From a candidate division FCPU426 bacterium (GTDB lineage: Bacteria; Oederibacteriota; Muellerivitia; Muellerivitales; Muellerivitaceae): DNA of 64,000 bases. Below, piece after piece: positions 35,535 to 60,316 of this stretch (within the stretch, counting starts at the first letter, position 1; every line of letters starts with the position of its first letter). The stretch is from contig CAWCKJ010000002.1 of assembly GCA_963796105.1 (NCBI GenBank), positions 192,001-256,000 on the forward strand, given 5' to 3'. Made by a program: the position numbers and the translations under genes. Below the pieces are notes generated by a model. That model searched no databases, was not told where the DNA came from, and saw nothing but the letters and a program-made list of their open reading frames with translations.

Positions 35535-35593
35535 CACTTGGAGTGAAAAGAAAACCCGCGGAAAACTCCCGCCACGAATGGTTAGGGGAGAAA

Positions 35594-42162: not shown

Positions 42163-43203
42163 ATGGTGACTCCCCCCCTTCCGCCCGATGAGGAGGCCAG
42201 GATCAGGGAACTGGACCGTCTCCATCAAATGGATACCCCCGATGAGGAACGTTTCGACAAGCTTGTCCGGCTCGCCGCGGGTCTTTTCAACGTGCCGGTC
42301 GCCCTGATTACCCTGGTGGATGAAAACCGTGTTTGGTTCAAGGCCCGGCACGGCCTGGAAACCCAGGAAGTCCCCAGGGAACTTTCCTTTTGCGCCCACG
42401 CCATCCTTTCCCCGGAGCCTTTCCTGGTGCCGGACGCCAGGTCGGACGACCGTTTCAAGGACAACCCCTTCGTGAAAGGGGAACCCCATATCCAGTTCTA
42501 CGCCGGTTATCCCCTGAGCGGAGCCCAGGGACAAAGGGTGGGAAACCTCTGCCTGGTGGATTACAAGCCCAGGGAAATAGGCCAGGAACACCTGCAAGCC
42601 CTGAAAGACCTGGCGGACCTGGCAGTGATGGAATTGGAGATACAGCAAATCCACCAGGCCAACCAGGCCCTCCTCAAGGAAAGAAATTTTTTGCGCAACC
42701 AGGCCCTGGTGGATTCCCTGACCCGTCTCTGGAACCGGGGCGCCATCCTGGAAATATTGGAGTTGGAATGGAGGAAAGCGGCCCGGGAAGGCTCCTCGGT
42801 GGGGGTGATCATGGCCGATTTGGACCATTTCAAGAACATCAATGACACCTTCGGCCATCCGGTCGGCGACGTGGTCCTGCTTGAAACGGCCCATATGATC
42901 AGGTCTTGCCTGCGCTCCAGCGACTCGGCGGGGAGGTACGGCGGTGAGGAGTTCCTCATGGTTTTTCCCGGGGTGGGAGCCTCCCTGGTCCGGGAGATCG
43001 GCGAGAGGATCCGCTCCGCCATGGAATCCAAAGCCATCATCACCCCGAAAGGCATCCTGAAAACCACCATCAGCATGGGATGCGGGGTCACCCCCGTGGA
43101 CCGCAAGATTCCCTTGGACACTCTCATCGCCCAGGTTGACAAGTCCCTCTACCAGGCGAAGAGGGAAGGGAGGAACAGGGTCTGCCAAACCGCGCTGGAA
43201 TAA
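42163..43203 (+). CDS. GAF-GGDEF diguanylate cyclase
   Basis: SFCAHAIL, RF.DNPFV, FYAGYPL GAF domain; RxxD I-site and RYGGEEF. Confidence 0.93.
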   Translation: MVTPPLPPDEEARIRELDRLHQMDTPDEERFDKLVRLAAGLFNVPVALITLVDENRVWFKARHGLETQEVPRELSFCAHAILSPEPFLVPDARSDDRFKDNPFVKGEPHIQFYAGYPLSGAQGQRVGNLCLVDYKPREIGQEHLQALKDLADLAVMELEIQQIHQANQALLKERNFLRNQALVDSLTRLWNRGAILEILELEWRKAAREGSSVGVIMADLDHFKNINDTFGHPVGDVVLLETAHMIRSCLRSSDSAGRYGGEEFLMVFPGVGASLVREIGERIRSAMESKAIITPKGILKTTISMGCGVTPVDRKIPLDTLIAQVDKSLYQAKREGRNRVCQTALE

Positions 43204-43247
43204 GCATTTCTTTAAAAAGTGTTTTCAAATTTGCCGGTCCCGGCCGG

Positions 43248-45257
43248 TCAGGGGGTCGGGGTCGAAACTGTTCCCTCGGTGGGGGCGGGGCTGGGGTTGG
43301 TTTGGGGCCGGGGATTGAAGTCGGCCGGGACGGGGTTCGGCAGTCCCAGGGTCTGGTCAATCGGGACGACCCCGATGTCCTTTAAGCCGTACCCGCTATT
43401 TTGCGGAAGAGTACCCACGATGGTTTCGGGAATGGAGACATAATCGGGCTGGAGAATCGAAACCGCGCCGCTGAGGCGGGCCGGGTCGAAAGCCGCCACC
43501 AGGTCGGAGACATCCGGCGTAAGTGCGTCATCCGGCCCCCAATTGTCCTGCCCCAGGTTCTTCTTACCGAGTTTCCGCCCTTTCATCTCATCCGGGAGTT
43601 TAGCCAGGGGGGTAAGCCCGAAGACCGTATCCACGAACTTCACGACCGAACCATGGTCGCCCGTTTCATGCACGACCGTATGGACCCTCGCGTAAGGGGA
43701 AATGAGAAGGAAGGGAACCCTGGGCCCGTCGCTGATGGCTTCCTTATCCGGGCCGAAGACGCGCAGGGGGGGCGGGACGTGGTCGTAGAATCCCCCGTCG
43801 TCATCCCAGGTGATGATGATGGCGCAGTTGTTCCAATATTGGCTCTTGGCGATGGCGTTGATCATCTTGGCCAGCATGGCCTCGCTGATCTGGGAGTCCG
43901 AACCGCCGGGATGGTCGTCGTCCCCCAGGTACTTTTTCTGGACCGCCGGGTCCTGGTCGGCCGGTTTCATGCCTAATAGGTTCCAATGGCCGCCCTTCAC
44001 GTAATAAACGCCCCCCTCTTGGGAAAGGGTTCCCTTGGAGACGGCGGGAATAAAATCCCTCAGGTCCTGGAGACAGCCGGCCATGGCCGGACTGTGGACG
44101 ATGTAACCGAAATATTGCGGGCCGTTATGGTGGGTGACATAGGAGAAGTGGGCTCCTTCGGCGTCGGTCGGATCCTCACCGCCGGGGATTGGTTCGCCAT
44201 AGCCTTCCTGGTACCAGCCCCAGGAGACCGCTTTGCTCCCCTTTTGGTTTAAATAGGCCACGTCGTCCTGCAGGTCCTCAAGGTCGGATTCCTTCTCCGG
44301 GTCCTCGGAGGTCTGGCTTCCCGCCTCGGAGCCCGCCAGGGAAAGGGCCAGGGTGGCGTAGGTCTGGTTATTTTGGACATCATCCTGCTTCTTTTTGGAG
44401 AAGTCCTTCGGGTTCACGGGCATTTTGGGGTTGGACTGGGTGTCCTCCGGGGACCCCCAGTAAGGGTCGGAGCTGTTCAGGACAGGTTCGCCCGCGCCTT
44501 TTTTCCCGAAATCCTTCTCCATCTTCTCGGGGTGGAGGACGCCCTCGGTTTGCCCGCTTTGGGCGGCGATGATGGACAGGTTGCCGGGCGTGGAGGGGCC
44601 GACCATCAGCTGGAAAAAGCGGTCGAAGAGGACGAAACGGTTGGCCCAGTGCCAGAGGAAGGGGATGGTTTCGCCGTCGAGATGGGCCATGGTGATTTCC
44701 CCCAATTGCTTGGCTTGAAGGGTGGGAAGGCCGGTCGGGAATTTTTTCATCTCCTCCGACAGGGCGAACTTGTCCATCAGCGGTTTCCCGTCCACTACGT
44801 CCATCTTTTGGGTCAGCAAAAAGTGCCCGTGGCCGACGTCATCCAGGTCGGAGGCGTATTCCTTGGATCCGATCCGGAAGGGTTGGATCTGCTCCGTGGT
44901 TCCGTCGGGGTTTTCGATGGGCTGGTTAAAGCCTGGAGTCTCGCTTTGGGGGTGGGAATAGATGCCCTCCACGCCCGGGAAGGTGCCGAAATAGGAGTCG
45001 AACGATCGGTTTTCCTGGTAGAGAATAAATACATACTTGATGTTTTGACGCAGGAGCGAAACCAGTTTCTTCCGGCTGAGGCGCGGTTCATTGGCTTTCG
45101 GGACCTCCAAAGGGGCGATCTCAGCGTCGCCCGTGGGGGGCAGGGATTCGACTATTGATTTGGAAACAGTTTGGGAAAGAGCCCGGGATTGCGGGCCGAA
45201 GACCGTGAAAATTACCAACAAGCAGAGAACCCCTACGGCTGTTCGAATGAAATTCAT
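43248..45257 (-). CDS. Secreted phosphoesterase (AcpA acid phosphatase / phospholipase C superfamily)
   Basis: Signal peptide; QENRSFDSYFG, GPSTPG (Ser-nucleophile type as in Francisella AcpA), DDHPG, TWDDDGGFYDHVPPP, GPRVP. Confidence 0.9.
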   Translation of the reverse strand: MNFIRTAVGVLCLLVIFTVFGPQSRALSQTVSKSIVESLPPTGDAEIAPLEVPKANEPRLSRKKLVSLLRQNIKYVFILYQENRSFDSYFGTFPGVEGIYSHPQSETPGFNQPIENPDGTTEQIQPFRIGSKEYASDLDDVGHGHFLLTQKMDVVDGKPLMDKFALSEEMKKFPTGLPTLQAKQLGEITMAHLDGETIPFLWHWANRFVLFDRFFQLMVGPSTPGNLSIIAAQSGQTEGVLHPEKMEKDFGKKGAGEPVLNSSDPYWGSPEDTQSNPKMPVNPKDFSKKKQDDVQNNQTYATLALSLAGSEAGSQTSEDPEKESDLEDLQDDVAYLNQKGSKAVSWGWYQEGYGEPIPGGEDPTDAEGAHFSYVTHHNGPQYFGYIVHSPAMAGCLQDLRDFIPAVSKGTLSQEGGVYYVKGGHWNLLGMKPADQDPAVQKKYLGDDDHPGGSDSQISEAMLAKMINAIAKSQYWNNCAIIITWDDDGGFYDHVPPPLRVFGPDKEAISDGPRVPFLLISPYARVHTVVHETGDHGSVVKFVDTVFGLTPLAKLPDEMKGRKLGKKNLGQDNWGPDDALTPDVSDLVAAFDPARLSGAVSILQPDYVSIPETIVGTLPQNSGYGLKDIGVVPIDQTLGLPNPVPADFNPRPQTNPSPAPTEGTVSTPTP

Positions 45258-45403
45258 TTTTTACTCCTTTTCAACACAAATCGAACTATGACACTTCAAA
45301 AACTGACTAAGCCTATGTACAAAACACCTGCGGTCTATTGGTTTTTTTAATCTTCCCCCTTTGAAAGAGGGGGATAGAGGGGAAGTTAGCCTTTTATGTA
45401 TTA

Positions 45404-47047
45404 CCTGAATTTTGCACCGAGTTTACCGATTCCGTGGCCAGATCGGCCTGAATCGGGACCCGACAGTGGCCATTTTCATCAGAAGTGAACTTATGTGCAA
45501 AGAATTTTTTGCACCAAGCCACTTCTAGGCCGCCCTGGGTCTTTCCAATCGTTTTCGATCAAGGTATTTGAGGAAACCCAATAGGCCCGCTGTCCTATCA
45601 TCATGGATTGAATACCTCACCACATCCCGATGGCCGTGATACTGGATTCGGGCGGCTACAAAGAGCATCTTCAAACGTGCGATCCGAAGGGTATGGTCCG
45701 GCATGGTGATCTGTTCCTTCTCCTGTGGCTTCTTTCCCGGTCGCTTTTCTTTTCCACAATGGCCCACCATTAGTTTCATCCACCTCCAGAGGTTGTAAGC
45801 CAGCATCACGATCTGGAAAAAAGCATGGTGGCTTTGGAAACTCTTAGAGGGAATTGCTAATAACCCCTCCCGTTGCGCCTCACCAATCAGGTTTTCCACA
45901 TCCGCGCGCAGGTCGTATTCCTCAACCACCCGATGGGGTGCTCCCAGACAGTTGGTCGCGAAGATTCGGTAGACATATCCTTCCATTTCAGGAAGGCTCA
46001 ATTGTTTCTCCCGCGCTTTTTCATCCAGCGTCCTCATCGCCACAAACCGGACTGGTTGTTGCCAGCCTATGGGTTGATGGACACATTCGTTGTATTCGTG
46101 TTCTCCATGGCGGTACCAACCCTTTTTCGTGAAAGGCGGGTCATGCCGCTTGTTCCCGAAGATGAAAGAAAACCCTTCTTTTTCACAGGCTTTCACGCTT
46201 TCCCAGCCGATCATTTCACCGTCACCGCGCACCAGAATCGTCCGGACACAGGACGGCAAGAGTCGCCGGAATTGTCTAATTTGGCGGGCCACTTCCTCAG
46301 AACTAAGGGTGGTTCCGCGTCTTTGGGTTCCGCACAAATATTCCCGGGTTTCCTGGAGAAAACACAGAATGGGCCTCAGTCCCTTCTTGCCCCGGTGCTT
46401 GGGGTTGTATCCTTTTCGGCTTCCCTCGATATTTCCGTAGACCGTTGCGGTGGTGGTATCGATGTTGATCTCCACCTTCTTGGGGGCATATTTCACCTGT
46501 CCCCAAACCTTGGCCCGTAACGCCCCACTCAGATTCAGCAACGATGCCGACTGCCCGATCCCCAGCGACCTCAGGTATCTCCAAAAAGTTGTCACTACCG
46601 GCAACAAGGGAACCCGCAGTAAACCGCACAGCATGACCTCACCCCGCAGGTAGGCAAAATGGCCAAGTCTTTGGAACCCGATGAAAAGAAGCATTAGGAT
46701 GCCGCTTACCATCCGGTAGTGGCCCAAATTCGGAAGGCGTTTAGGTGCGGCATAGTGTTTTTTGAATTCCCGCTCAAAATCAAGAAGGTCGAACATCTTC
46801 GCCAATGCCAACAATCCGCCAAAAGCTGTTAGGCGGTCTTCGCAAATACCTACGGGAGTATTGGCCGTAATCTTGGGCGCGATTCTCCCGTTTCGATTGG
46901 CTTTTTTCTGGACTTGCGGGTTTGATTTCTGAGGCGTATCTTGACGTTTCACCATCTGGGGGACCCTCTTTTAGGATGAGTTGGCTTCGCAACCCTTATC
47001 CTATAATGGTTTCCTAGATGGTTTTTTTATTAGGCGCAAAATTCAGG
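45404..47047 (-). mobile_element. IS1380-family insertion sequence, 1644 bp
   Basis: Terminal IRs CCTGAATTTTGC(A/G)CC; 5-bp target duplication TATTA at 45399-45403 and 47048-47052. Confidence 0.92.
45525..46955 (-). CDS. IS1380-family DDE transposase
   Basis: LTAFGGL, IDTT...YG...GYNP, VRGDG, Y..RADVENLIGE. Confidence 0.9.
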   Translation of the reverse strand: MVKRQDTPQKSNPQVQKKANRNGRIAPKITANTPVGICEDRLTAFGGLLALAKMFDLLDFEREFKKHYAAPKRLPNLGHYRMVSGILMLLFIGFQRLGHFAYLRGEVMLCGLLRVPLLPVVTTFWRYLRSLGIGQSASLLNLSGALRAKVWGQVKYAPKKVEINIDTTTATVYGNIEGSRKGYNPKHRGKKGLRPILCFLQETREYLCGTQRRGTTLSSEEVARQIRQFRRLLPSCVRTILVRGDGEMIGWESVKACEKEGFSFIFGNKRHDPPFTKKGWYRHGEHEYNECVHQPIGWQQPVRFVAMRTLDEKAREKQLSLPEMEGYVYRIFATNCLGAPHRVVEEYDLRADVENLIGEAQREGLLAIPSKSFQSHHAFFQIVMLAYNLWRWMKLMVGHCGKEKRPGKKPQEKEQITMPDHTLRIARLKMLFVAARIQYHGHRDVVRYSIHDDRTAGLLGFLKYLDRKRLERPRAA

Positions 47048-47336
47048 TATTAATTAGAGAACGACTAATACCCCCCACCCAAAGGCGCTCATAGGAAAAA
47101 CCCCCTATGTACAACGAACTCATAGGGAAGAGCCCCTATGTACCCACGAAACCGAAATGCCCACAAACCGAAAAGCCCCATTTTCACCCCCATTTCATCC
47201 ATGTGATAATAATAAATGGAAAATGGGGACGTCCCCATTCCCAATATCTTTGTTTTTCAAAGAGGCATGGGGGAAAGGGGGGAATTAGCACCAGCAACAT
47301 GTTTTTCGAAATTTGCCAATGTTGAGACAATTATTT

Positions 47337-47876
47337 TTAATTCAGCTTAAAGGCGATGGGAAGCCGCACGCGGCAATTAATCGGCTGGCCCGATGCGTCC
47401 AGGGCCGGCCTGAACCTGGCGTCCTGCAGTTTTGCCATGACCACCGTGTTGAACTCGGGCGTACTGCCCTGGACGATGCTGACGGACTTCACCTTTCCCT
47501 CGATATTGATGAGAAGCTCCGCCACCACCCTGCCTTCCTTCTTTTGCTTGCGCATCTCAATGGGGTAATCATCCTCGCCGATCATACCCCCTACCCAGGA
47601 GGGCTGGCGGCTGGCGACGACCGCCACGGCCAAATCAGGCTCGGGAGTGGGCTTGATTGTGGGCGGCGTGGGGGATTTCCCTTTTTTGGCCATGATCCAG
47701 GTCTCGATGACCGGGGTGGCTTGTGTCCCTACGGATAAAAGCGGGGTGCTTTTCATGTCGATGTCGACGCGGTATTCGGTATGGGCTTCCCCCCAGGCGA
47801 TAAGCCCCAAGGCCCCGCCGAATAGGCCGCCGTGGATCAGGCTCGAAATCAGGATTCCCCTGAATAGGCGGTTCAT
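47337..47876 (-). CDS. tonB: TonB energy transducer (short linker)
   Basis: SSLIHG TM anchor; C-domain YP...EGRVV...ARFRPA...PIAFKL. Confidence 0.88.
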   Translation of the reverse strand: MNRLFRGILISSLIHGGLFGGALGLIAWGEAHTEYRVDIDMKSTPLLSVGTQATPVIETWIMAKKGKSPTPPTIKPTPEPDLAVAVVASRQPSWVGGMIGEDDYPIEMRKQKKEGRVVAELLINIEGKVKSVSIVQGSTPEFNTVVMAKLQDARFRPALDASGQPINCRVRLPIAFKLN

Positions 47877-48277
47877 TATTTCCGGTCCATCGCGAGAGCC
47901 ACTTTCTGGACCCCGCCCATCTTGATGGCGTCCAGGACCTGCGCCACTTTCTCATAGGTGATTTCCTTGGGCGCCTTGAGGATCACCTTAACGCCGGGAT
48001 TCACGCCGGACTCAACCGTCATTTGCTGGGTCAGGCGGGGCAGGTCGATGTCCTGGAGGTTGAACTTGAGTTCGCCGTTCAAGCCAAGGCTGACAGTCAA
48101 GGCTGGCTGGGGGGCCATTTCCTCCTTGACCACCTTGGGCAGATGAACCTGGAGGGCCTGCTCGCTGACGAAGGTGGCAGTTACCATGAAAATAATCAGC
48201 AAAACCAGCGTGATGTCCACCAAGGGCGTGACGTTGATGCCCGTGACCAGGTTGCTTTCGTCGGAGGCGGGGACCAT
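47876..48277 (-). CDS. exbD: ExbD/TolR
   Basis: INVTPLVDITLVLLIIFMVT. Confidence 0.93.
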   Translation of the reverse strand: MVPASDESNLVTGINVTPLVDITLVLLIIFMVTATFVSEQALQVHLPKVVKEEMAPQPALTVSLGLNGELKFNLQDIDLPRLTQQMTVESGVNPGVKVILKAPKEITYEKVAQVLDAIKMGGVQKVALAMDRK

Positions 48278-48903
48278 TACTTCACCTTCTCTTGCTTGAG
48301 GTAGGCCAGGAGGACCCTGGAAAGGCTGTCGGTGTTGGTCTGGATCTCCCTTAACCGTGTCAGGAAAAAGTTGTTGGCCACGACCGCCGGGATGGCCACC
48401 AGGATGCCGAAGGCGGTGGCGATCAAGGCGGCGGAGATGCCCGACATGACGACCGAGACGCCGCTTTGGCCGGTCATCCCCAGGTCGTTAAAGGCCTTGA
48501 TGACTCCCAGGACCGTCCCGAAAAGCCCTACGAAGGGGGCGTTGTTGCCGAGGGTTCCCAGGATGATCAAGTACCTTTCCAACTCCAGCTTTTCCCTCAA
48601 CCAGCGGGAGGCCATCACTTCCTCCACCGCCGGGGCGCCTTTCTTGAAGCTCTTCAAGCCGGCCAGGGCCACCCGGGCCTCCACCCTGGCGCTCTTCTCG
48701 GCCCTTTCCACCGCCCCGGGAACGTCATGCTTCTCCAGGCTCGCCGCCAGGCCGTCCATCAACGCCGACAGGTCGCCCCGGTTCTTGTGGAAGACCAGCC
48801 AGCGCTCGATCATGACCCCGATGGAAACAACTGAAGCTATGATCAGCAAAACGATGACCCAGGTGTCCCCCACCAAGGCCATGTGCATGAAAATCGAGTT
48901 CAT
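48277..48903 (-). CDS. exbB: ExbB/TolQ/MotA proton channel
   Basis: APFVGLFGTVLGV, GISAALIATAFGILVAIPA. Confidence 0.93.
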   Translation of the reverse strand: MNSIFMHMALVGDTWVIVLLIIASVVSIGVMIERWLVFHKNRGDLSALMDGLAASLEKHDVPGAVERAEKSARVEARVALAGLKSFKKGAPAVEEVMASRWLREKLELERYLIILGTLGNNAPFVGLFGTVLGVIKAFNDLGMTGQSGVSVVMSGISAALIATAFGILVAIPAVVANNFFLTRLREIQTNTDSLSRVLLAYLKQEKVK

Positions 48904-48964
48904 TGAAAACTCCCCTTTAATTATTTTTTAAACCGGTGTAACAAACGTCACGTACATAAAAATA

Positions 48965-49032
48965 GTCCGAACCCGGCGCACGGTTTCGGTCCCTGAAGCC
49001 GAAACCGTTCTGGGGTACACGCCGGGTTGGAC
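48965..49032. other. Intercistronic two-tier stem-loop between TBDR and exbB
   Basis: Outer stem AACCCGGCG/CGCCGGGTT enclosing inner stem CGGTTTCGG/CCGAAACCG. Confidence 0.6.
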
Positions 49033-49077
49033 AGGAGATGATTGCTGATTCCCCTTTAATCCTTTTTTCTTGAAGCC

Positions 49078-51762
49078 TTAAAAATCGACCTTTACGCCTC
49101 CGTCGAAGGAAGCCCCGTAATACTCGTTCTGGATCGGGAAATTGGGGGAGCCCTGGTAAAAACGATGGTTCGCGTTGTTCAGGTTGTTCCCGTCGGCATA
49201 GATCGTGAAGTCCTTGCTTAAGGCGTACTGGGCCTTCGCGTCGATCTGGAAATAATCGTCATAATAAATGTTCGGGGAGTTGTCCTGGGTTGGGTCCCCG
49301 ATCGTGGTCAGGTTTTTTCCGGTAAAAGATCCGCCAATGTCGAAAGTGAATCCGTATTTCTTGTAAAAGATACCGGTGTTCCAAATCAGGTCGGACTGGC
49401 TGGGCAGTTCGGAATAGACATTCGGCACGATCTCGCCCGAGGAACCGATAAAGGAAATGGACCCGCGGAAACCCAGCCCATTCAGGGGTTCGGGCAGCAT
49501 GGTGTATTGCTGTTGGTACTGGAATTCCGCCCCGTAGATCTGGGAATAGGGAATGTTAACGTAGGAGACCGTATTGGTGACTCCCCCCGAGCTATCCGCC
49601 TTTGAGTAATCGGTCGCGAAATAGTTGGCGATGTCCTTGAGGAAAAAATCGGCGGCCAGGATAGCGCCCTTGGCCGGATAAAACTCCCAAGAACTGTCGA
49701 TGTTGTTCGAGATCATCGGCTTCAGGTTGGGGTTGCCGGATTGAAAATTAATGACCGAGTCCCCTTGTTGCGCATCGAGAGCCGCCCCTAAGCTAAACGA
49801 GGGGATATACTGGTTTTGGGTTGGACGGGCGATGGTCTGCGAATAGTTGGTCCGGGTGACGAACTGGGGATTGAACGTGTACTTCATTCCCAGGCTCGGC
49901 AGGGCATTGGTATAGTCGATGGTCCCCGTATGGGCGATTGGGGCGGATAATTCTGTTTTCGTATAATTCCCGAAGGCGTCATAGGCGTAAGACTGCCACC
50001 AGTTGTATTGAATGTGCGTGGCCTCGACCCGGACGCCGCCCATGATCTCCATTTTTCCGCTTTTGATGGTGTCCATGGCGTAAACCGCGTAGACATCTTC
50101 CCAGTTGTTATAGTCACCCCCCTGGTCATCAATAGGGTCGCCTTGGTAATAAGGACCCTGGTAGGCGTTCGAGCCACTAAGAAGTTTTGTTGTCATGCTG
50201 AGGCTTGGAAGCGGCCCCATGTTATAGATGTTGCCGGGATAGTAGGGCGTACTGCTGGAACCCAAGACTTGATCCATTGTAAGGGTTCCGGTTTGGTCTG
50301 AGGTGAGGCTCACTTGGTTGAAGACGGAGTATTCTAACCGCGCTGCCGCGCCGAATTTGACCGTTCCTGTATCGTCCCCTCCGAGGGGCGTATCGAACTT
50401 GCCGTCGGCCTTGAGGCCATACTGATTCACGTTGTAGGTGCTTGTGCCGTCACTTGAGCCGGTATAGGTGAACAGGCTCGGGTCGTTCTGCCCGGTCATG
50501 TTGCTCATGTTGATGGTGGGGTTATTCCCGTTATTAGCGGTATTGTTGTAAGTGAGCGAGCCTGTAAGATTATTTTTATTTGCGAAACCATAACCAAAGT
50601 CATAGGGCACATTCTGGTCCGCATAGGCAAAACTGGCCTTATAGTCCAGGATGAACCCGCCGAGATTGTTTTCGCCCCCCACTCCCGTGGCCAAGGTGCG
50701 GAACTGGGTTAATTCATTCGTCATGCTTTTTTTATCTTGAACCCCGGCGGCCTGGACATCGGGAATCGTAATGCTTCCGTCGGGATTCACGACGGCGGCA
50801 CCTTCCGCATCCAGGTTTTTAATATCCGTGTGCCATACGGGATTGCGGTATTCGTCATAACCGCTATACATTAAATTGGCGTAGAGCTTGTTTTCTTTGT
50901 CCATTGAGAGGTCGATATTCGCCCCGATCCCGCCCCGGTCACGCTCATAGTCGTAATAACGGAAATCATAGTCCGTGACGGAATTAGGGACTAAAGGCGG
51001 ATCAGCGGGGTCGCTATAGCCGTTCTCCAAGTCGTCGATCCCGAACCTTTCATACTGGTACGAGGCCGCGACCAGGATCCCCAGATTGGTTTTCCCCCCG
51101 AGGTTGAGGGTCTCGCCCCAGGTTAAATCCTCCTTCGTGGTGGCTTGGCTGCGCTCCGGAACATAACCCCCCTCGACCTGGAGTTCGTGGAAGCTTCCGG
51201 GATAATCGAAGGCTGATTTTGGGACGAGGTTCATCTGACCGCCGACACCCTGCGCGTCCATATCCGGCAGGATGGTCTTGAAGACTTCCATTTCACCCGC
51301 CATGCCGGCCGGGATGGCGTCGAGGTCCACAGACCTCGCCGCTTCATCATAGGAGGGGATGATGGTGTTATTGAACGTGATGATGTTCAGGTTCGAGTCC
51401 GTGCCCCGGATGTCGATATAACGGGGCTCGCCGGTGTCATGCTGGACCCCGACCCCGGGCAATTGCTGGGCCGCCTGGGCGACGGTCTTGGCCGGCGTCT
51501 GGTTGATCTGGTCCTGGGAAAGGATGTTCACCTTGTTCAGGGAATCGTGCATCTCGTCGAAGGACTGGGCCTGGTCGATGCCGTGGGCCTTCACCGTGAT
51601 CTCGGGAAGCTCCGAGACCGCGGTCGTGGAGGCCGACAGGGTATCACCCTGGCTGTCCGCCTGTTTGTCGTCAGCCACAGCGGCCCGGATATCCAGGCAT
51701 AAAATCGAAACTATCGAGAGCATCAGCGTGATAAAATTCAAACCCAGCTTATTCATCCTCAT
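49078..51762 (-). CDS. TonB-dependent outer-membrane receptor
   Basis: Signal peptide; TonB-box-like EITV; plug LPGV...DTGEPRYIDIRG; GNPNLKP; NLNN; terminal Phe. Confidence 0.93.
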   Translation of the reverse strand: MRMNKLGLNFITLMLSIVSILCLDIRAAVADDKQADSQGDTLSASTTAVSELPEITVKAHGIDQAQSFDEMHDSLNKVNILSQDQINQTPAKTVAQAAQQLPGVGVQHDTGEPRYIDIRGTDSNLNIITFNNTIIPSYDEAARSVDLDAIPAGMAGEMEVFKTILPDMDAQGVGGQMNLVPKSAFDYPGSFHELQVEGGYVPERSQATTKEDLTWGETLNLGGKTNLGILVAASYQYERFGIDDLENGYSDPADPPLVPNSVTDYDFRYYDYERDRGGIGANIDLSMDKENKLYANLMYSGYDEYRNPVWHTDIKNLDAEGAAVVNPDGSITIPDVQAAGVQDKKSMTNELTQFRTLATGVGGENNLGGFILDYKASFAYADQNVPYDFGYGFANKNNLTGSLTYNNTANNGNNPTINMSNMTGQNDPSLFTYTGSSDGTSTYNVNQYGLKADGKFDTPLGGDDTGTVKFGAAARLEYSVFNQVSLTSDQTGTLTMDQVLGSSSTPYYPGNIYNMGPLPSLSMTTKLLSGSNAYQGPYYQGDPIDDQGGDYNNWEDVYAVYAMDTIKSGKMEIMGGVRVEATHIQYNWWQSYAYDAFGNYTKTELSAPIAHTGTIDYTNALPSLGMKYTFNPQFVTRTNYSQTIARPTQNQYIPSFSLGAALDAQQGDSVINFQSGNPNLKPMISNNIDSSWEFYPAKGAILAADFFLKDIANYFATDYSKADSSGGVTNTVSYVNIPYSQIYGAEFQYQQQYTMLPEPLNGLGFRGSISFIGSSGEIVPNVYSELPSQSDLIWNTGIFYKKYGFTFDIGGSFTGKNLTTIGDPTQDNSPNIYYDDYFQIDAKAQYALSKDFTIYADGNNLNNANHRFYQGSPNFPIQNEYYGASFDGGVKVDF

Positions 51763-51890
51763 AACGACTTCCTTTCCCGATCAGAAGAAATAAAAAACAT
51801 CCAAGGGATTCCATTGCTTGATATTCGAGGGGTGTCCTGATGGAACCGGCTTATGACGGGGGAGAATTTAACGGAAAGACATCCGCTTAT

Positions 51891-51941
51891 TGTTATGGAG
51901 AGGTTAATTGGAGGTAACGATACGATGACGAAATCGTCATC
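51891..51941. promoter_or_regulatory. OmpR/PhoB-family operator array
   Basis: Hexamers TGTTAT, GGTTAA, GGTAAC, GATGAC at 51891, 51902, 51913, 51924 (11-bp period); the last forms the palindrome GATGACGAAATCGTCATC, matching CusR-box geometry ATGAC-N6-GTCAT. Confidence 0.7.
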
Positions 51942-52115
51942 TTCGATATTTATATATTCCCGGTACTATGATGGGGATCATTTACGTGAAAGTGGTTACC
52001 AGCAGAAACTGCGCGGCTTTAGAATGTCTCGGCGGACCGCCAGTCCATAAAATTAAATTTTGTTCATCTTCCAAATTTAGCTTGATACTTCTGCCGGATT
52101 AAATTACATAGACCC

Positions 52116-52790
52116 ATGAGAATCTTGATCATCGAGGACGAACCGAAAACTTTGGCCTACTTGGCCAAAGGCCTTTCCGAGAACGGCTTTACTGTGGACC
52201 GCTCCGGGAACGGCGGGGACGGATTCCGGATGGCCCTGGCGGGCTCCTACGACCTTCTCATCCTGGACATCATGCTCCCGGGCAAGGACGGCTGGTCGAT
52301 CCTGTCGGACTTGCGCGGCTCAGGACGAAGGATTCCCGTTCTTTTCCTGACCGCGCTGGACGCGGTGGAGGACCGCGTGAAGGGGCTGGAATCGGGGGCG
52401 GACGACTACCTGGTGAAACCCTTCGCTTTCACGGAGCTATTGGCCAGGGTGCATACCCTTTTGAGAAGGGGCCAAGCCCAGCCGCCGGAAGCTCTCAAGA
52501 TAGCCGACCTTGAAATCGACCCCATCAGCCACAAGACCCTGAGGTCCGGACGGAAACTCGACCTCACCCCCAAGGAATTCTCCCTCCTATATCTACTCGC
52601 TTCCAAGAACGGGGAAGTTTTGTCCCGGGCCCGCCTGGCGGAACTGGTATGGGACATGAGTTTCGACAGCGGCACCAACGTGGTGGATGTCCATGTCCGC
52701 CGGCTTCGTTCCAAAGTGGATGACTTATTCAACCCGAAACTGATCCATACCGTCAGGGGGGTGGGCTATGTCCTCGAAGACCGCGGATAA
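52116..52790 (+). CDS. Heavy-metal-type response regulator (CusR/CopR/CzcR/IrlR-like)
   Basis: LDIMLPGKDGW, GADDYLVKPFAF, VWDMSFDSGTNVVDVHVRRLRSKVD. Confidence 0.92.
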   Translation: MRILIIEDEPKTLAYLAKGLSENGFTVDRSGNGGDGFRMALAGSYDLLILDIMLPGKDGWSILSDLRGSGRRIPVLFLTALDAVEDRVKGLESGADDYLVKPFAFTELLARVHTLLRRGQAQPPEALKIADLEIDPISHKTLRSGRKLDLTPKEFSLLYLLASKNGEVLSRARLAELVWDMSFDSGTNVVDVHVRRLRSKVDDLFNPKLIHTVRGVGYVLEDRG

Positions 52791-54204
52791 AAAGGGGCTG
52801 GGTTGGTTCGGCTCCCTGGCCGCCCGCATGACCCTCTGGTACGCCCTTTCCGCCTTCGCGCTCGTCCTGACGACTTCCGGTTTCATCTATCACGCCCTTA
52901 CCGACAGCCTGGCCCACGAGGATGATGTCCTGCTTTCTGAAAATGTTAAAAATTTAAACGCTTTGGCCAAAAAGTCCCAGGGTGACCTGGAGGATATCCA
53001 GGAGTTCGTGGGCGAAACTCCAAAGTGGTACAGGGAAATCTCGTTTTGGACGAGGATATTGGACAGCAGTGGGCGGGTCTTGACCGAGACCCCTGGAATG
53101 TCCCAAACTTTGCCCTTGCGTTTGTTTTTGGGAGGTTTGCCGGACGACCGGAATTCCACGGTCCGCTCCGGGGAGGGAAAGCCCTTTCGGATCAGGTCGT
53201 CCCAGGAGGTTTGGCCCGGTAATGCCCCCGCCCGCGTTACCGTCCAAATGGCGATGGACATGAGTTCCGACGAGATCATCCTGAGAAAATTCCGGGCGGA
53301 GCTTATGACCATCCAATGCTTTTCCCTCCTGGCTTGCGCCTTGGCGGGCTACTGGATCGCCCAGAGGGGCATCCGGCCCGTGAGGAGAATGGCGGATACC
53401 GCCGCCCGGATCAGGTCCAGCACACTTTATGAGCGGTTGGGCCGGTCCGGCCTTCCCTCCGAGCTTTCCGACTTAGCCGCGACTTTCAATGACATGCTGG
53501 ACCGCCTGGAAGAATCCTTCGCCAGGCTGTCCCGTTTCAGCTCCGATATCGCGCATGAACTCCGCACCCCCATCCAGAACCTCCGCGGGGAAGCGGAAGT
53601 GGTCCTGAGCAAGGAGCGGGAGCCGGGAGAGTACCAGGACCTCCTGGGTTCCTCCCTGGAGGAATACCAGCGTCTTTCCAGCCTCATTGACAACCTCCTT
53701 TTCCTCGCGCGGGCGGAAAATCCCCAAACCCAAATCCAGCGGGAGGAATTGGACTTGAAAAAAGAACTGGGGCTTCTCCAGGACTTTTACGGCCCATCGG
53801 CGTGGGAATCGGGTATCGCTTTACGGGTGGATGCCCCGGAACCTTTGCGGGCGCACATGGACCGTTCCTTATTCCAACGGGCCGTGGGTAACTTGGTCGA
53901 AAACGCCTTGAAGCACACTTCCTCGGGAGGGAACCTGCTTTTGAAAGCCTCCGCCAGCGATGGAAAAGTTCTTGTGGAAGTTACCGACACGGGAAAGGGG
54001 ATTCCCCCGGACCGGATTTCCAGGGTCTTTGACCGATTTTACAGGGTGGACCCCTCGCGCTCCCCCTCTTCCGGGGGCGCCGGGTTGGGGCTTTCCATCG
54101 TGAAAAGCATCATGGACTTGCATGGGGGGACAGTGGAAATCCGGAGTGAAGTTTCCAAGGGGACCACCGTCACGCTTTTGTTTCCCGCTGTTGGGTCTGT
54201 TTGA
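52768..54204 (+). CDS. Heavy-metal-type sensor histidine kinase (CusS-like)
   Basis: 2 TM + HAMP; FSSDIAHELRTP; FDRFYRVD; GAGLGLSIV. Confidence 0.92.
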   Translation: MSSKTADKKGLGWFGSLAARMTLWYALSAFALVLTTSGFIYHALTDSLAHEDDVLLSENVKNLNALAKKSQGDLEDIQEFVGETPKWYREISFWTRILDSSGRVLTETPGMSQTLPLRLFLGGLPDDRNSTVRSGEGKPFRIRSSQEVWPGNAPARVTVQMAMDMSSDEIILRKFRAELMTIQCFSLLACALAGYWIAQRGIRPVRRMADTAARIRSSTLYERLGRSGLPSELSDLAATFNDMLDRLEESFARLSRFSSDIAHELRTPIQNLRGEAEVVLSKEREPGEYQDLLGSSLEEYQRLSSLIDNLLFLARAENPQTQIQREELDLKKELGLLQDFYGPSAWESGIALRVDAPEPLRAHMDRSLFQRAVGNLVENALKHTSSGGNLLLKASASDGKVLVEVTDTGKGIPPDRISRVFDRFYRVDPSRSPSSGGAGLGLSIVKSIMDLHGGTVEIRSEVSKGTTVTLLFPAVGSV

Positions 54205-54271
54205 GCTTCATATGCTTTGTTGTTCCGTTTGCCGGGGCGTTAATAGGTTTTCACCATCCGCCCCGGAAAAA

Positions 54272-54298
54272 ATTACGCCGCTGTAATTTGGCTGTCAT
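54272..54298 (+). promoter_or_regulatory. Cop-box-like site upstream of the yncE gene cluster
   Basis: ATTAC-N6-GTAAT followed 11 bp later by TGTCAT. Confidence 0.6.
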
Positions 54299-54463
54299 AT
54301 CAATGACTTACCTTGATGTAAAAATAAAATGGGAGTTTATGGAGTCAAAAGGTTTAACGCATATTAATTTGATAGCAGGAGAGTTGTTGAAGCCTGAAAT
54401 TAAGCTTTGAGGCGTCTTAAGGTGTGTTCCTAGTTAAAGTAAAATTTTTTTACGGGGGTCGTT

Positions 54464-55498
54464 ATGAACTGCTTTAAACTGTTTTTGCTGATAGGGCTTT
54501 TGACCGCATCAATAGGCTTGGCCGGCGCGCAGGAGGCGGGGAAGAGCGGATACAAGATCCTCCAAAAAGTTTCCCTGCCGGGGGACGGGGGCTGGGATTT
54601 TCTGACCGTGGACAGCGTGAACCGCCGGGTTTACGTCACCCATAACAACAGCGTGCAGGTGCTCGACGCGGATTCCTTGAAATTGGTGGGGACCATCGAG
54701 AACGTGCCCCATCCCCACGGGGTGGTGGTCCTGCCTGATTTAGGAAAAGGCTACGCCACCAGCGGTGTCCCGGGAAGCGTGGTGGTCTTTGACCTGAAAA
54801 CCTTGAAGCGTATTACCGAGATACCGGACTCCAAGGATGCGGACGTGATTTTCTATGACGAATCCTCTGGGAAGGTTTTGACTTTCAACGGCGACAGCGA
54901 AAATGCCGAAGTTATCGATCCCGCCACCGACAGGGTGGTTAAAACCGTTGAACTGGGAGGGAAACCGGAAGTCGCGGTGTCCGACGGAAAAGGCCACCTC
55001 TATGACAACCTGGAGGATAAAAGCGTGATTCTCAAGATCAATGCCAAGACCATGAAAATCACCCAGCGCTGGCCTTTGGCGCCGGGAGAATCCCCCTCCG
55101 GGCTTTCCATGGACGTAAAAAACAACCGGCTCTTCAGCGGCTGCCACAACAAGAACCTGGTGGTGATGAACGCGAAGAACGGGAAGGTCGTACAGACCCT
55201 GCCCATCGGCGACCACGTGGACGGCACCTGTTTCGATCCCGAATCCGGCACCATTTTCAGCTCCAACGGGGACGGCACCTTGACGGTGATCCACGAGGAT
55301 TCACCGGACCAATACACCCTGGTGGAAAACGTCAAAACCGAACCCGGCGCCAAGACCATGGCTTTCGATTCCAAGACGGGAAGGGTTTTCATGACAACGG
55401 CCCGGATGGAGCCGCAGTCCACGCCTACCGAAAAAGACCCCAAGCCGCACCACAAGCCTGTGCCTGGGACCTTTCATGTCCTGGTATTGGGGAAATAA
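54464..55498 (+). CDS. Secreted YncE-family beta-propeller protein
   Basis: Signal peptide AGA|QE; GDGGWDFL; repeated blades; GAKTMAFD. Confidence 0.85.
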   Translation: MNCFKLFLLIGLLTASIGLAGAQEAGKSGYKILQKVSLPGDGGWDFLTVDSVNRRVYVTHNNSVQVLDADSLKLVGTIENVPHPHGVVVLPDLGKGYATSGVPGSVVVFDLKTLKRITEIPDSKDADVIFYDESSGKVLTFNGDSENAEVIDPATDRVVKTVELGGKPEVAVSDGKGHLYDNLEDKSVILKINAKTMKITQRWPLAPGESPSGLSMDVKNNRLFSGCHNKNLVVMNAKNGKVVQTLPIGDHVDGTCFDPESGTIFSSNGDGTLTVIHEDSPDQYTLVENVKTEPGAKTMAFDSKTGRVFMTTARMEPQSTPTEKDPKPHHKPVPGTFHVLVLGK

Positions 55499-56264
55499 GC
55501 CTTTGGAAAAAAACGGGAACGGAATCGCATTGAGCAAGGTTCCCGAGCTGACCTTGCTCTTTTGGATCATTAAGATCGCCGCCACCACCCTGGGTGAGAC
55601 AGGCGGGGACACGGTTTCGATGTCCATGAACCTGGGATACCTGGTGGGTACGGGGATCTTCGCGGTCATTTTCCTGGGGGCCGTCGCCATCCAGATCAAG
55701 GCCAAGAAGTTCCATCCCTATATCTACTGGTTCACCATCATCGCCACCACCACCGTCGGCACGACCCTGGCGGATTTCTCGGACAGGTCCCTCGGCATCG
55801 GTTACGCCGGGGGTTCGGCGATTCTTTTTTGCCTTCTCATGGGCTCCCTCTACGTTTGGAAAAGGACCCTGGGGACGGTAGCGGTGGATTCGGTCAAGGA
55901 CCCGAAATCCGAGATGTTCTATTGGGTCACCATCATGTTCTCGCAGACCCTGGGGACCGCCTTGGGGGACTGGACCGCCGACTCCGCCGGCCTGGGGTAC
56001 CTGGGGGGAGGGGCCTTGTTCTTCCTGCTTTTGGCGGTGGTGGCGGGGCTTTATTACGGGACCAAGATCTCCCGGACCATCCTCTTTTGGTCGGCCTTCA
56101 TCTTGACCCGCCCCTTAGGCGCGGTTTTGGGGGATTTCCTGGATAAGCCCATTGATCACGGGGGGGTGGCCTTGAGCCGTTATTCCGCCTCCGGGGTGTT
56201 ACTTCTCTTCATCTTGGGCTGTATCTTTTTCTTCCAACATCGGCCCGCCCGGAAAGTCCATTGA
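55476..56264 (+). CDS. COG4705/DUF347-repeat membrane protein
   Basis: SKVPELTLLFWIIKIAATTLGETGGD, SQTLGTALGD, ILTRPLGA; true start probably a few codons downstream. Confidence 0.85.
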   Translation: MSWYWGNKPLEKNGNGIALSKVPELTLLFWIIKIAATTLGETGGDTVSMSMNLGYLVGTGIFAVIFLGAVAIQIKAKKFHPYIYWFTIIATTTVGTTLADFSDRSLGIGYAGGSAILFCLLMGSLYVWKRTLGTVAVDSVKDPKSEMFYWVTIMFSQTLGTALGDWTADSAGLGYLGGGALFFLLLAVVAGLYYGTKISRTILFWSAFILTRPLGAVLGDFLDKPIDHGGVALSRYSASGVLLLFILGCIFFFQHRPARKVH

Positions 56265-56452
56265 ATTGTCAGCCGCTTCAAGATTTTCCCAAGGAGAAAT
56301 CGGCGCCCAAACCGGCTGGTAAATCCAAACCATTCCGGCCCTAAAGGTGTCAATGCTATGGCTCCATTCAAGTTTTCCATCCCTCTTGCCAGGCCAAAAC
56401 CACCTCGTGAAAAAATAATGGGAAGTTTTGTTATTCCGTTGCGATCCATATA

Positions 56453-57238
56453 ATGTGGAACATGCTCAAACCGATCTTCGGGTTGAAACGATGCTTGAGA
56501 ATGCTCCTCGGAATGGCGGCGGTCCTTAGTTTCGTCCCCGCGGCTTGGGCTGGCCCCCCTTTTGAAACCGACGATCCCGAGCCGACGGAACTGGGCCATT
56601 GGGAAATCTACCTGGGGGGAACCGCACTTCAAATCCAGGACGATTTTTCCGGGACAGCCCCTTTCTTTTCCGTAAATTACGGAGCCTTGCCGGATGTCCA
56701 GTTAAGCCTGACCCCACAAGCTTCTTTTAATTTTCCAACAGGCAATATCCAGTACTTTGGTTTTGGGGATACCCTGGTTGGCCTGAAGTACCGTTTTCTC
56801 CATGAAAGCCCGGATATACCCCAGGCCGCTTTTTTCCCCCAGGTCAATTTCCCCACAGGCGATGCCGGGAAGGGGTTGGGGTTCGGGCAGTACCAGTTAC
56901 TGCTTCCCCTCTGGGTCCAAAAGAGCTGGGGCCCCTGGACCACTTTTGGGGGCGGGGGCTATTGGGTGAACCCGGGAGCCGGCAGCCAGAATTGGGTTTT
57001 CCTGGGTTGGGAAATCCAAAGGGACCTCTCGCCCCTGTTCACCCTGGGAGGGGAAATTTTTTTTCACAGCGCCAATGAAATTGGCGAAAAGGACAGTGTG
57101 GGATTCAATCTCGGGGGATTCATTAATTTCGACCAGGTGAACCACATCGTTTTCTCTGCGGGAAGGGACATCTTCCAGCCCGAGTATCAATTCACGGGTT
57201 ATTTGGCCTACGAATGGACATTCCCCAAGGGTGAATAA
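56453..57238 (+). CDS. Putative outer-membrane beta-barrel transporter (phenol MetA-deg/CoxB-like)
   Basis: AWA|GPPFETDDPEP, GFGDT.VG.KYRF, PTGD, alternating beta strands; start uncertain. Confidence 0.7.
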   Translation: MWNMLKPIFGLKRCLRMLLGMAAVLSFVPAAWAGPPFETDDPEPTELGHWEIYLGGTALQIQDDFSGTAPFFSVNYGALPDVQLSLTPQASFNFPTGNIQYFGFGDTLVGLKYRFLHESPDIPQAAFFPQVNFPTGDAGKGLGFGQYQLLLPLWVQKSWGPWTTFGGGGYWVNPGAGSQNWVFLGWEIQRDLSPLFTLGGEIFFHSANEIGEKDSVGFNLGGFINFDQVNHIVFSAGRDIFQPEYQFTGYLAYEWTFPKGE

Positions 57239-57277
57239 AATAATATTCCATGGTCATATGCTTTAAGAAAAAGTCAT

Positions 57278-57662
57278 TAGAACCTATTTCAAAATCAATT
57301 TTGCTTATTCAACAAAACACGAACAATATGGAGTCTCCCCTTCTGTGCTAAAGCACTATGCTGTTCTCATTTTTTAAATTTTATATGAGGAACAGTATGA
57401 AAGAGGGGCATTTCGGTTTGTGGGTACCATAGGGGTTTTCCCTATGAGCGCTTTTGGAACAAGGGGGAGTTAGCCTTTTCGTCATGTTTTATTAACAACT
57501 AATATCCCCTATCCCCCTTTTTCACCCCCATTTCATCCATTTGATAGTTATAAATGAAAAATGGGGAAGTCCCCATCCTCAATGACTTTGCTTTTCAAAG
57601 TGGCATGGGGGAAGGGGGAACCTGCTATCGCCCGTTCAATAGGTATTTTGAGATAGGTTCTA
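57278..57662. mobile_element. MITE-like element copy 1 (385 bp incl. flanking TA)
   Basis: Ends TAGAACCTATTTCAAAAT / ATTTTGAGATAGGTTCTA (17/18 inverted match); non-coding, hairpin-rich interior. Confidence 0.8.
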
Positions 57663-57842
57663 AATGATCACGCACCCAATCCCTTACCCGTCGAATTCTT
57701 TATCACAATGTTAAATCTAATTTTGTCCCGTTCAGTCCTGTTGTCGGAAATTAGATTCAACGATAATATTTATCCGGGGAGACTTCTGGGATTGTTTTTA
57801 AACCTAACGGATTTTAAGGTGATTATTTTTTAGGAGGTCCCC

Positions 57843-59858: not shown

Positions 59859-59899
59859 CAATTTATTGTCCCTAAAATCCTAAATTCCTTAAAAGTTAC

Positions 59900-60228
59900 T
59901 AGAACCAATCTCAAAATCAATTTTGCTAATTTGACAAACCACGAACAACATGTAGTCTCCCCCTCTGTGCTAAAGCACTATGCTGTTCTCATTTTTTAAA
60001 TTTTATATGAGGAACAGTATGAAAGAGGGGCATTTCGGTTTGTGGGTACCATAGGGGGTTTTCCCTATGAGCGCTTTTGGAACAAGGGGAAGTTGGTTTT
60101 TCCGTTGAGCATTATTAACAGCTAATACCCCCCTGCCCCCTTTTTCAAAGGGGGATTATCACTAGCGCCATACTTTTCGAAATTTGCCAAAGTTGAGCCG
60201 CTTAGAAGTAATTTTGAGATAGGTTCTA
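59900..60228. mobile_element. MITE-like element copy 2 (329 bp incl. flanking TA)
   Basis: Ends TAGAACCAATCTCAAAAT / ATTTTGAGATAGGTTCTA; same orientation as copy 1 with a near-identical ~120-bp core. Confidence 0.8.
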
Positions 60229-60316
60229 ATAGATACTACCCTCATCCCTTTGGGAACCCTCGACCTGATACCCCGGGAAATCAATCCCATGAGCCATTTG
60301 GAACCTGAAAATTTAC

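Follow-up and report, generated by a model that had tools for sequence, protein, structure and literature searches.

Results

Layout of the module

We examined a 64,000-nucleotide stretch of DNA from a candidate division FCPU426 bacterium (contig CAWCKJ010000002.1, positions 192,001 to 256,000; hereafter the window), in which positions 43248 to 57238 hold a TonB-dependent receptor with its own energising genes, a secreted phosphoesterase, and a divergent heavy-metal-type regulator and sensor kinase followed by a YncE-like propeller, a DUF347 membrane protein and a predicted barrel. Judged by its sequence, this module is best read as a variant of the known TonB-phosphatase loci, carrying a propeller and a CusR-type promoter site. 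Eleven open reading frames (ORFs) were confirmed in the interval from the ORF list, with families assigned by Pfam and NCBIfam, and every gene named in an earlier sequence-only reading of this DNA lies where that reading had placed it and in the family it had given. The features are as follows.

43248 to 45257, minus strand: secreted phosphoesterase of the AcpA/phospholipase C superfamily (PF04185), 669 amino acids, assigned by Pfam and motifs
45404 to 47047, minus strand: IS1380-like insertion sequence (IS) element (transposase at 45525-46955) with a 5-bp target duplication, within a multicopy palindromic repeat
47053 to 47330, no strand assigned: multicopy intergenic repeats, 10-12 genome copies, with a terminator-like hairpin at 47242-47219 on the minus strand
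47337 to 47876, minus strand: TonB (TonB_C), the sole match to its query in the genome
47876 to 48277, minus strand: ExbD/TolR-family protein (Pfam/NCBIfam)
48277 to 48903, minus strand: ExbB/TolQ-family protein (MotA_ExbB; Pfam/NCBIfam)
49078 to 51762, minus strand: TonB-dependent receptor (TIGR01782), assigned by family score, tree and neighbourhood
51865 to 51870, minus strand: predicted -10 hexamer TAAATT, about 21 nt past the third Pho half-site
51892 to 51918, minus strand: Pho-type array of three half-sites, GTTAC-N6-TTAAC-N6-ATAAC, facing the receptor
51924 to 51941, no strand assigned: CusR/CzcR-type palindrome GATGAC-N6-GTCATC, in 11-bp phase with the Pho array
52116 to 52790, plus strand: heavy-metal-type response regulator (TIGR01387), assigned by family score
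52768 to 54204, plus strand: heavy-metal-type sensor kinase (TIGR01386), assigned by family score and residue alignment
54272 to 54298, plus strand: second motif ATTAC-N6-GTAAT-N6-GTCAT, found in the window's genome only
54464 to 55498, plus strand: secreted seven-bladed YncE-like propeller, assigned by fold model, fusions and neighbourhood
55476 to 56264, plus strand: DUF347/COG4705 membrane protein with eight predicted helices, the true start probably somewhat 3' of the ORF call
56453 to 57238, plus strand: predicted small outer-membrane barrel (weak PF13557, from Pfam), accessory

Genomes are given G-numbers and loci L-numbers, G000 being the window's own genome (4.98 Mb). There, the receptor, TonB, phosphoesterase, DUF347 protein and barrel each match only themselves. 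As the sequence-only reading had noted, neither an efflux pump nor an oxidase is found among the 14 proteins scanned.

A receptor, propeller and acid phosphatase core shared across phyla

The receptor scores 358 bits against TIGR01782 (cut-off 310) and matches PF07715 and PF00593. In a quick IQ-TREE phylogeny of 52 receptors, midpoint-rooted, with no bootstrap and with long-branch warnings outside the window's clade, it falls in a 28-row clade with a Shimodaira-Hasegawa-type likelihood support (SH-aLRT) of 99; the tree omits short, partial, frameshifted or near-duplicate receptor loci. A uniform test, counting a partner within 7 kb, was applied to the 28 clade loci and the 24 outside. A propeller lies near the receptor in 24/28 against 2/24, an AcpA-type or histidine acid phosphatase in 16/28 against 1/24, and a regulator-kinase pair in 15/28 against 2/24, while the beta-propeller phytase PF02333 shows the reverse distribution (0/28 against 9/24). 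The core that is shared across phyla is the receptor, the YncE-like propeller and the acid phosphatase. The sequence-only reading had placed the propeller in the sensor arm; it tracks the receptor instead and belongs with the receptor core. DUF347, which the same reading had counted as part of one cross-phylum system, stands beside the receptor in just six of the 28 clade loci, all of the window lineage's type, and in 0/24 outside. Inside the clade, L143-L149 form a group of 40%-identical receptors with no partner genes within short flanks.

Loci from metagenomes and plasmids display the same partners in varying order. Three metagenome loci (L155, L158 and L151) have the receptor followed by the propeller, and two of them, L155 and L158, continue with a phosphoesterase and exbBD-tonB and lack both sensor and DUF347; in L158 a propeller-PF04185 fusion lies behind the receptor. 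A Paraburkholderia plasmid carries acpA, receptor, propeller and exbBD-tonB, a Polymorphobacter plasmid carries a sensor pair along with receptor, propeller and PF04185 gene, and a phosphatase is nearby in 5/6 of the plasmid receptor loci inspected from 81 records. In a sample of 251 genomes of the family of L048 (Herbaspirillum), 52 matched, and flanks were taken for the best 12 and for eight of the other 40. The best 12 have the propeller beside the receptor in 11 cases and a histidine acid phosphatase in five; in the next group a PF02333 phytase stands right behind the receptor in 8/8, as it also does on a Sphingomonas plasmid. The betaproteobacterial loci carry a QseB/PmrA-like pair in place of the heavy-metal pair. 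Acidobacterial receptors (10/151 genomes) lie outside the clade and have mixed neighbours. Of ten genomes that came up by way of their DUF347 loci, eight gave no receptor with the queries used, one gave only weak partial hits and one (G198) has the module.

The propeller is modelled as a seven-bladed YncE-like fold with a mean model confidence (pLDDT) of 91.6. E. coli YncE is among its closest folds (template-modelling score, TM, 0.76; 15% identity); the fold search otherwise returned generic seven-bladed propellers, and an Atlas search gave YncE/YVTN clusters only. It falls under the YncE equivalog cut-off NF052280 (42 against 400 bits). Among 29 longer propeller relatives, 18 are fused to a phosphatase domain (two PF04185, nine PF00149, three PF00328 and four PF00245); nine others are propeller-only, and the last two carry a caspase-like and a sulfate-symporter domain, respectively. 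A YncE-family gene adjoining a chromate transporter on the FB24 plasmid matches the propeller at 26%, and loss of ChrK, a YVTN propeller that is one of three accessory genes, lowers chromate resistance (PMC2751784). A stand-alone propeller paralogue, 49% identical, also lies elsewhere in the window's genome (L130, G000 C9:25209-26240) and is syntenic in the same-genus genome G001, which is without the module.

Conservation within the family and the phosphoesterase slot

The family sample comprises 24 same-family genomes, kin that are not independent, and includes duplicate or near-duplicate loci (L001 and L112; L153 and G016; L160 and G011). Within it the receptor is present in 11 genomes, a kinase orthologue in 10, DUF347 in 16 and propeller relatives in 19; the receptor was found in 0/16 more distant genomes searched. 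The sensor pair is divergent from the receptor in 9/11 receptor carriers, the remaining two being G019, which is 99% complete and lacks the pair, and G014, which is 63% complete and whose contig ends in the receptor. Five genomes (G002, G004, G016, G018 and G022) hold receptor, exbB, tonB, both regulators, propeller, DUF347 and phosphoesterase on a single contig, in differing gene orders, the barrel being the part not included. The components do co-occur elsewhere, and what survives of the co-occurrence proposed by the sequence-only reading is a module conserved in the family, near-complete in five genomes; a single system extending across phyla is not supported. A 119-amino-acid protein without a Pfam match recurs within the module (G002, G004, G011, G018, G022, L002 and L159; an example lies at L001 10759-11118) and is absent from the window.

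The window's phosphoesterase scores 190 bits against PF04185 (cut-off 23) and retains the motifs QENRSFD, GPSTPG (Ser222), HH376-377, H449 and D485/D492/H493, which align with PDB 2d1g and which we take to be the catalytic metal and nucleophile sites of this family. It falls under the AcpA cut-off TIGR03397 (107 against 363) and the PC-PLC cut-off TIGR03396 (101 against 580); the replacement phosphoesterase of G019 passes TIGR03397 (411). A phosphoesterase is linked to the receptor in 10/11 carriers, nine on the same contig and G006 across a contig break in tonB. Three subfamilies, mutually 22-32% alike, occupy this one slot (the window type in four genomes, the TIGR03397 type in two and a third type in four), and since the slot has repeatedly been refilled by different phosphoesterases, the activity rather than the gene appears to be what is kept.

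In the window the IS1380-like element, of which the genome has 20 full-length copies, lies between the phosphoesterase and tonB, where it landed, with a 5-bp target duplication, inside a palindromic repeat with 10-14 genome copies. Because this element intervenes and no Pho site was found in the 135 bp examined 5' of the phosphoesterase, that gene may be partly severed from its operon in this genome, and the insertion probably weakens its expression. Multicopy palindromic intergenic repeats occur at 45306-45403, 47053-47330, 57269-57660 and 59891-60231, and the IS1380 element sits in one of them. In G019 (L122 3804-16077) the neighbours of a sensor-less module are a class A acid phosphatase and a 905-amino-acid propeller-PF04185 protein; both have Pho-type sites, and three phosphatases surround one receptor.

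A palindrome and a Pho-type array in the receptor promoter

The boxes that the sequence-only reading described at 51924 and 54272, with Pho-like repeats beside the first, are present. The pattern ATKAC-N6-GTMAT, picked after the sites had been viewed, has 23 occurrences in the genome, two of them in the module. The first palindrome is kept in 17/17 receptor-regulator intergenic regions of sensor-bearing loci and is the best genome site for a matrix that includes it (31.5 against 21.5). With one mismatch allowed, it is absent 5' of four receptors without a neighbouring sensor (G019, L151, L155 and L158); the near-complete G019 has no kinase orthologue either. Its 5-N6-5 shape matches the CzcR motif GAAAC-N6-GTAAT (PMC13209446), and CusR binds an intergenic box between divergent operons (PMC10920338). 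The palindrome stands a fixed 6 bp from the Pho array and anywhere between 49 and 329 bp from the regulator gene, with extra GTCAT half-sites extending toward that gene in 9/16 and 8/16 loci.

With an E. coli-style Pho pattern little was recovered at the pst genes of this genome, and the matrix used instead is specific to the lineage, trained on 22 sites in 13 pst stretches taken from relatives only. In the window's own genome this matrix ranks the pst operon first and pstS third; by reading of translations, the second site precedes a PHP-type phosphoesterase, the seventh a ppx-like gene and the eleventh a class A acid phosphatase-like gene. Scored six bases beyond the palindrome on the strand of the receptor, 16/17 loci rank among the top 0.1% of genome positions, against 0/17 in the same register on the regulator side, the register having been chosen after the alignments were viewed and the loci including near-duplicates and non-independent kin. 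A -10-like hexamer follows about 21 nt past the third half-site, as in the pst-porin promoters of relatives. In G019 the receptor keeps its Pho array, and a divergent class A acid phosphatase has one facing it as well. The box at 54272, the second of the two, scores 11.3 bits on the Pho matrix, could be read by either regulator, and is missing in G021 and L154, the two relatives that share the kinase-propeller order. The dual phosphate and CusR-type control suggested by the sequence-only reading is supported for the receptor arm; the second box is not conserved.

Control of the receptor by a riboswitch or by Fur was considered and rejected: positions 43000-58000 give 0 Rfam hits, and the best match to a Fur consensus is 12/19 here and 9-14 in relatives. 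The possibility that this is a siderophore or B12 receptor under such control, raised by the sequence-only reading itself, finds neither control in place, and the receptor groups with phosphatase-linked receptors. A scan for sigma-70 promoters and terminators gave no excess over shuffles (10 against 8.4; 22 against 22.9).

Other Pho-type sites in the genome were also recorded. The fourth-best, at G000 C2:260585, about 4.6 kb past the end of the window, precedes a 642-amino-acid receptor-like ORF. Two porin-pstS pairs, with pstS 88% alike, lie at G000 C7:165579-168166 and C3:772223-774877, the C7 pair having no adjacent pstCAB in the ORF list. In many relatives a conserved GC-rich hairpin separates the porin-like gene from pstS and precedes an internal Pho site (L174-L186; G000 C3:773242-773400 and C7:166598-166790).

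The sensor pair and DUF347

Regulator and kinase both exceed their heavy-metal family cut-offs (TIGR01387, 323 bits against 279; TIGR01386, 406 against 293). The regulator misses the CusR cut-off (288 against 420) and the kinase the CusS cut-off (249 against 423). In CusRS proper, His/Met copper sites are expected in the sensor domain. Among the 14 kinase orthologues, the periplasmic part has His50 in 12, with an acidic residue at 53, invariant Asp76, Asp99, Glu107, Asp164 and Asp168, Met111 in 14 and Met161 in 13, and no methionine cluster; the sensor domain has no match to a solved sensor domain. By its scores the pair is not CusRS proper, and the residues fit a cation or pH signal. The targets of the regulator differ between relatives: in G013 (L101 7002-15713) the genes behind an orthologous pair and its matching box encode PepSY, a DUF347 protein of another subtype, TolC, an adaptor and an RND pump, the last scoring best against CusA/CzcA (654 bits against a cut-off of 701). 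G013 is the only case in which such a pump follows the orthologous pair.

DUF347, which equals COG4705, is present in four repeats in the window protein, and its model has eight helices. No convincing solved relative emerged for this fold, which matters because export-precipitation systems (Pbr, UppP-DUF347) would couple a metal exporter to the phosphatase: Foldseek returned no match at E<=0.001, and the best VIA-align match has a Z of 7.1 and a root-mean-square deviation of 8.4 over 209 residues, the rows after it being MFS-like. Neighbourhoods were taken for the closest 80 of 429 confirmed loci, and among these a receptor lies near DUF347 in two, the propeller in 10, a regulator in 34 and a PAP2-like phosphatase within 5 kb in 13, against 4-6 PAP2-like hits in the whole own genome. 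In five relatives DUF347 lies downstream of the receptor on the same strand, and in three the barrel directly follows the propeller. DUF347 tracks the sensor and not the receptor, because the sensor pair and box of G013 precede it with no receptor, and because a receptor is rarely near it. DUF347 and the barrel are lineage add-ons. Genomic work on Frankia proposes that DUF347 is a metal exporter (PMC4531530), a proposal repeated in PMC9756366; a literature search under the name COG4705 found no papers.

Discussion

The closest comparisons are with the phosphate utilisation system (PUS) loci and with receptor-phosphatase pairs of Flavobacterium, in which such loci are induced by low phosphate (PMC8115612). 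As in PusCD and the Flavobacterium receptor-phytase pair, a TonB-dependent receptor adjoins a periplasmic phosphatase (PMC8115612; 10.64898/2026.09.03.749221), and as in PUS there is phosphate-starvation control, here predicted from the promoter, with organophosphate import having been proposed or shown for those systems. Unlike PUS, the window module has no SusD-type lid (no SusD family among its proteins by Pfam/NCBIfam), its receptor is accompanied by a secreted YncE-like propeller and its own exbBD-tonB, its phosphatases are of AcpA or histidine acid type, and its promoter bears an extra CusR-type site. The receptor is related to those of proteobacterial receptor and beta-propeller-phytase loci (PMC3400609), whereas its separate clade is partnered by the YncE-like propeller, which lacks PF02333, and by acid phosphatases. 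Having neither a SusD lid nor a PF02333 phytase (no Pfam match among the module proteins), the module is not a member of either group.

The sensor pair resembles CusRS, CzcRS and HprRS in passing TIGR01387 and TIGR01386, in its divergent layout and in a 5-N6-5 box shaped as the CzcR motif (PMC13209446). Unlike these systems, it falls under the CusR, HprR and CusS cut-offs and has no efflux pump in the module and no Met cluster in the sensor, and its predicted target is an importer under a promoter that bears a Pho array as well. The nearest precedent for tying a metal-responsive input to a phosphatase is the UrpRS-controlled phytase of Caulobacter (PMC8963506), and Frankia UppP-DUF347 likewise places DUF347 near phosphatases, with a role that is itself a proposal (PMC4531530); both systems use other phosphatase families, and the accessible parts of these two papers describe no coupled TonB importer or dual promoter. 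The propeller shares the secreted, seven-bladed YVTN type of E. coli YncE and Arthrobacter ChrK (PMC2751784) and, unlike YncE, appears to form a distinct phosphatase-tied subfamily, far under that family's cut-off. No description of the receptor-propeller-acid-phosphatase clade or of the two-input promoter was found in the mostly open-access main texts covered, and supplementary tables of Caulobacter or Burkholderia Pho regulons could already list members of the clade.

The phosphatase-linked plasmid loci, the propeller fusions and the receptor clade make organophosphate capture, as the sequence-only reading had suggested, the likelier job of this module. We lean somewhat towards an organophosphate-scavenging system, with an inositol-phosphate-like substrate, co-gated by a cation or acid sensor. 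The receptor would import a large phosphorylated molecule into the periplasm, where the propeller would hold it or hand it over and the phosphoesterase would cleave it, the freed phosphate entering through Pst. Candidate substrates are inositol phosphates, lipid head groups and metal complexes of either; the first two lead because sister clades pair with phytases and clade members with histidine acid phosphatases, and also because PusCD is required for growth on phosphatidylinositol (10.64898/2026.09.03.749221). PhoB (a PhoB-like protein is encoded at G000 C3:727856-728539) would sit on the array, at the -35 position, with the CusR-type regulator on the palindrome just upstream, whose centre is at about -72 from the inferred start, and the operon would fire most when low phosphate coincides with a metal cation or acid signal, that is, when cations lock phosphate up. 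DUF347 and the barrel would be further sensor targets in this lineage. Al and Fe bind phosphate in acid soil, and beta-propeller phytases favour neutral to alkaline pH. Rather doubtful, in our estimate, is a more novel reading: a distinct cross-phylum importer class with the secreted propeller as the periplasmic hand-over piece from the receptor to any acid phosphatase at hand and, in this lineage, a two-input promoter of PhoB and a CusR-type regulator, its kinase sensing acid or phosphate-locking cations, for instance Al or Fe.

Several observations weigh against organophosphate scavenging as set out here. Of the 16 top Pho sites inspected, about ten lie ahead of genes without an obvious link to phosphate. 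The Pho site in the window itself scores a middling 6.4 bits in register (its best site ranking 65), and the register was, as mentioned, chosen once the alignments had been viewed, in loci that are not independent. By the uniform test 12/28 clade loci have no acid phosphatase, and the clade receptors L143, L144 and L147 have no partner genes at all, their downstream flanks being under 3 kb. The sensor pair and box of G013 come without any receptor. Ten plasmid propeller loci, hand-picked from 138 records, include four RND pumps, one CzcE with a P-type ATPase and one chromate cluster, besides five two-component pairs, three PAP2 phosphatases, four TonB receptors and two DUF347 genes. The lineage-bound DUF347 and barrel, the unconserved second box and the IS element parting phosphoesterase from tonB count against the wider claim in which all these genes form one system.

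The same metal-linked evidence bears on whether the module might serve metal defence, a toxic cation being sensed, imported organophosphate cleaved, and the metal trapped in the periplasm with DUF347 exporting it. Consistent with this are the heavy-metal family scores of sensor and regulator, the G013 pair preceding DUF347 and a CusA/CzcA-like RND pump, the PAP2-like phosphatases within 5 kb of 13 of the closest 80 DUF347 loci, and the hand-picked propeller loci with RND pumps (4/10) or other metal-resistance genes (2/10), together with the proposal of export and precipitation by Frankia UppP and DUF347 (PMC4531530) and the uranium-induced phytase under UrpRS in Caulobacter (PMC8963506). We nevertheless consider metal defence unlikely. 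The receptor promoter has a Pho architecture and the receptor would therefore be on at phosphate scarcity, a poor time to spend phosphate; the core persists without sensor or DUF347 in G019, L155, L158 and L131; and the Caulobacter phytase seems to be required when phytate is the growth substrate, and not necessarily in biomineralisation (PMC8963506). The Pho architecture also argues against a receptor that imports a metal, iron or another cation, chelated by phytate or polyphosphate, with the phosphatase freeing the metal or using it as a cofactor. Metal chelates are the usual cargo of TonB receptors, the sensor belongs to the heavy-metal family and E. coli YncE is among the propeller's closest folds (TM 0.76), but Fur-like matches reach at most 12/19 in the window and 9-14 in relatives, regulators of this heavy-metal family usually activate at metal excess, and we regard metal import as quite unlikely.

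It is also conceivable that two units became neighbours in one family, the first a receptor-propeller-phosphatase core under Pho control and the second a stress island of sensor and DUF347, with the palindrome serving the sensor side only. DUF347 beside the receptor in only 6/28 clade loci, and often elsewhere in the 16/24 family genomes that have it, the sensor without a receptor in G013, the extra GTCAT half-sites toward the regulator gene (9/16 and 8/16 loci) and the QseB/PmrA-like pair of the betaproteobacterial loci would all suit such a division. The palindrome, however, keeps its 6 bp from the Pho array and ranges over 49-329 bp from the regulator gene, the regulator-kinase pair lies within 7 kb in 15/28 clade loci against 2/24 outside, and DUF347 is downstream on the receptor's strand in five relatives, which makes separate units, to our minds, quite unlikely.

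The module bears on the question of how soil bacteria take up metal-bound organic phosphorus, and several of its parts lend themselves to experiment. The receptor clade has cultured carriers (the Paraburkholderia and Polymorphobacter plasmids), the propeller accompanies phosphatases of several folds, and the promoter is short, with two inputs predicted. It also links DUF347 to a defined regulator. Were the hand-over and two-input reading true, it would provide a first function for the propeller subfamily, and its two-input part would mean that a metal-efflux regulator family has been repurposed for phosphorus acquisition. Large, secreted-looking proteins with long Pro/Thr repeats flank the module (35543-41434 and 57843-59825), and no link between them and the module was found.

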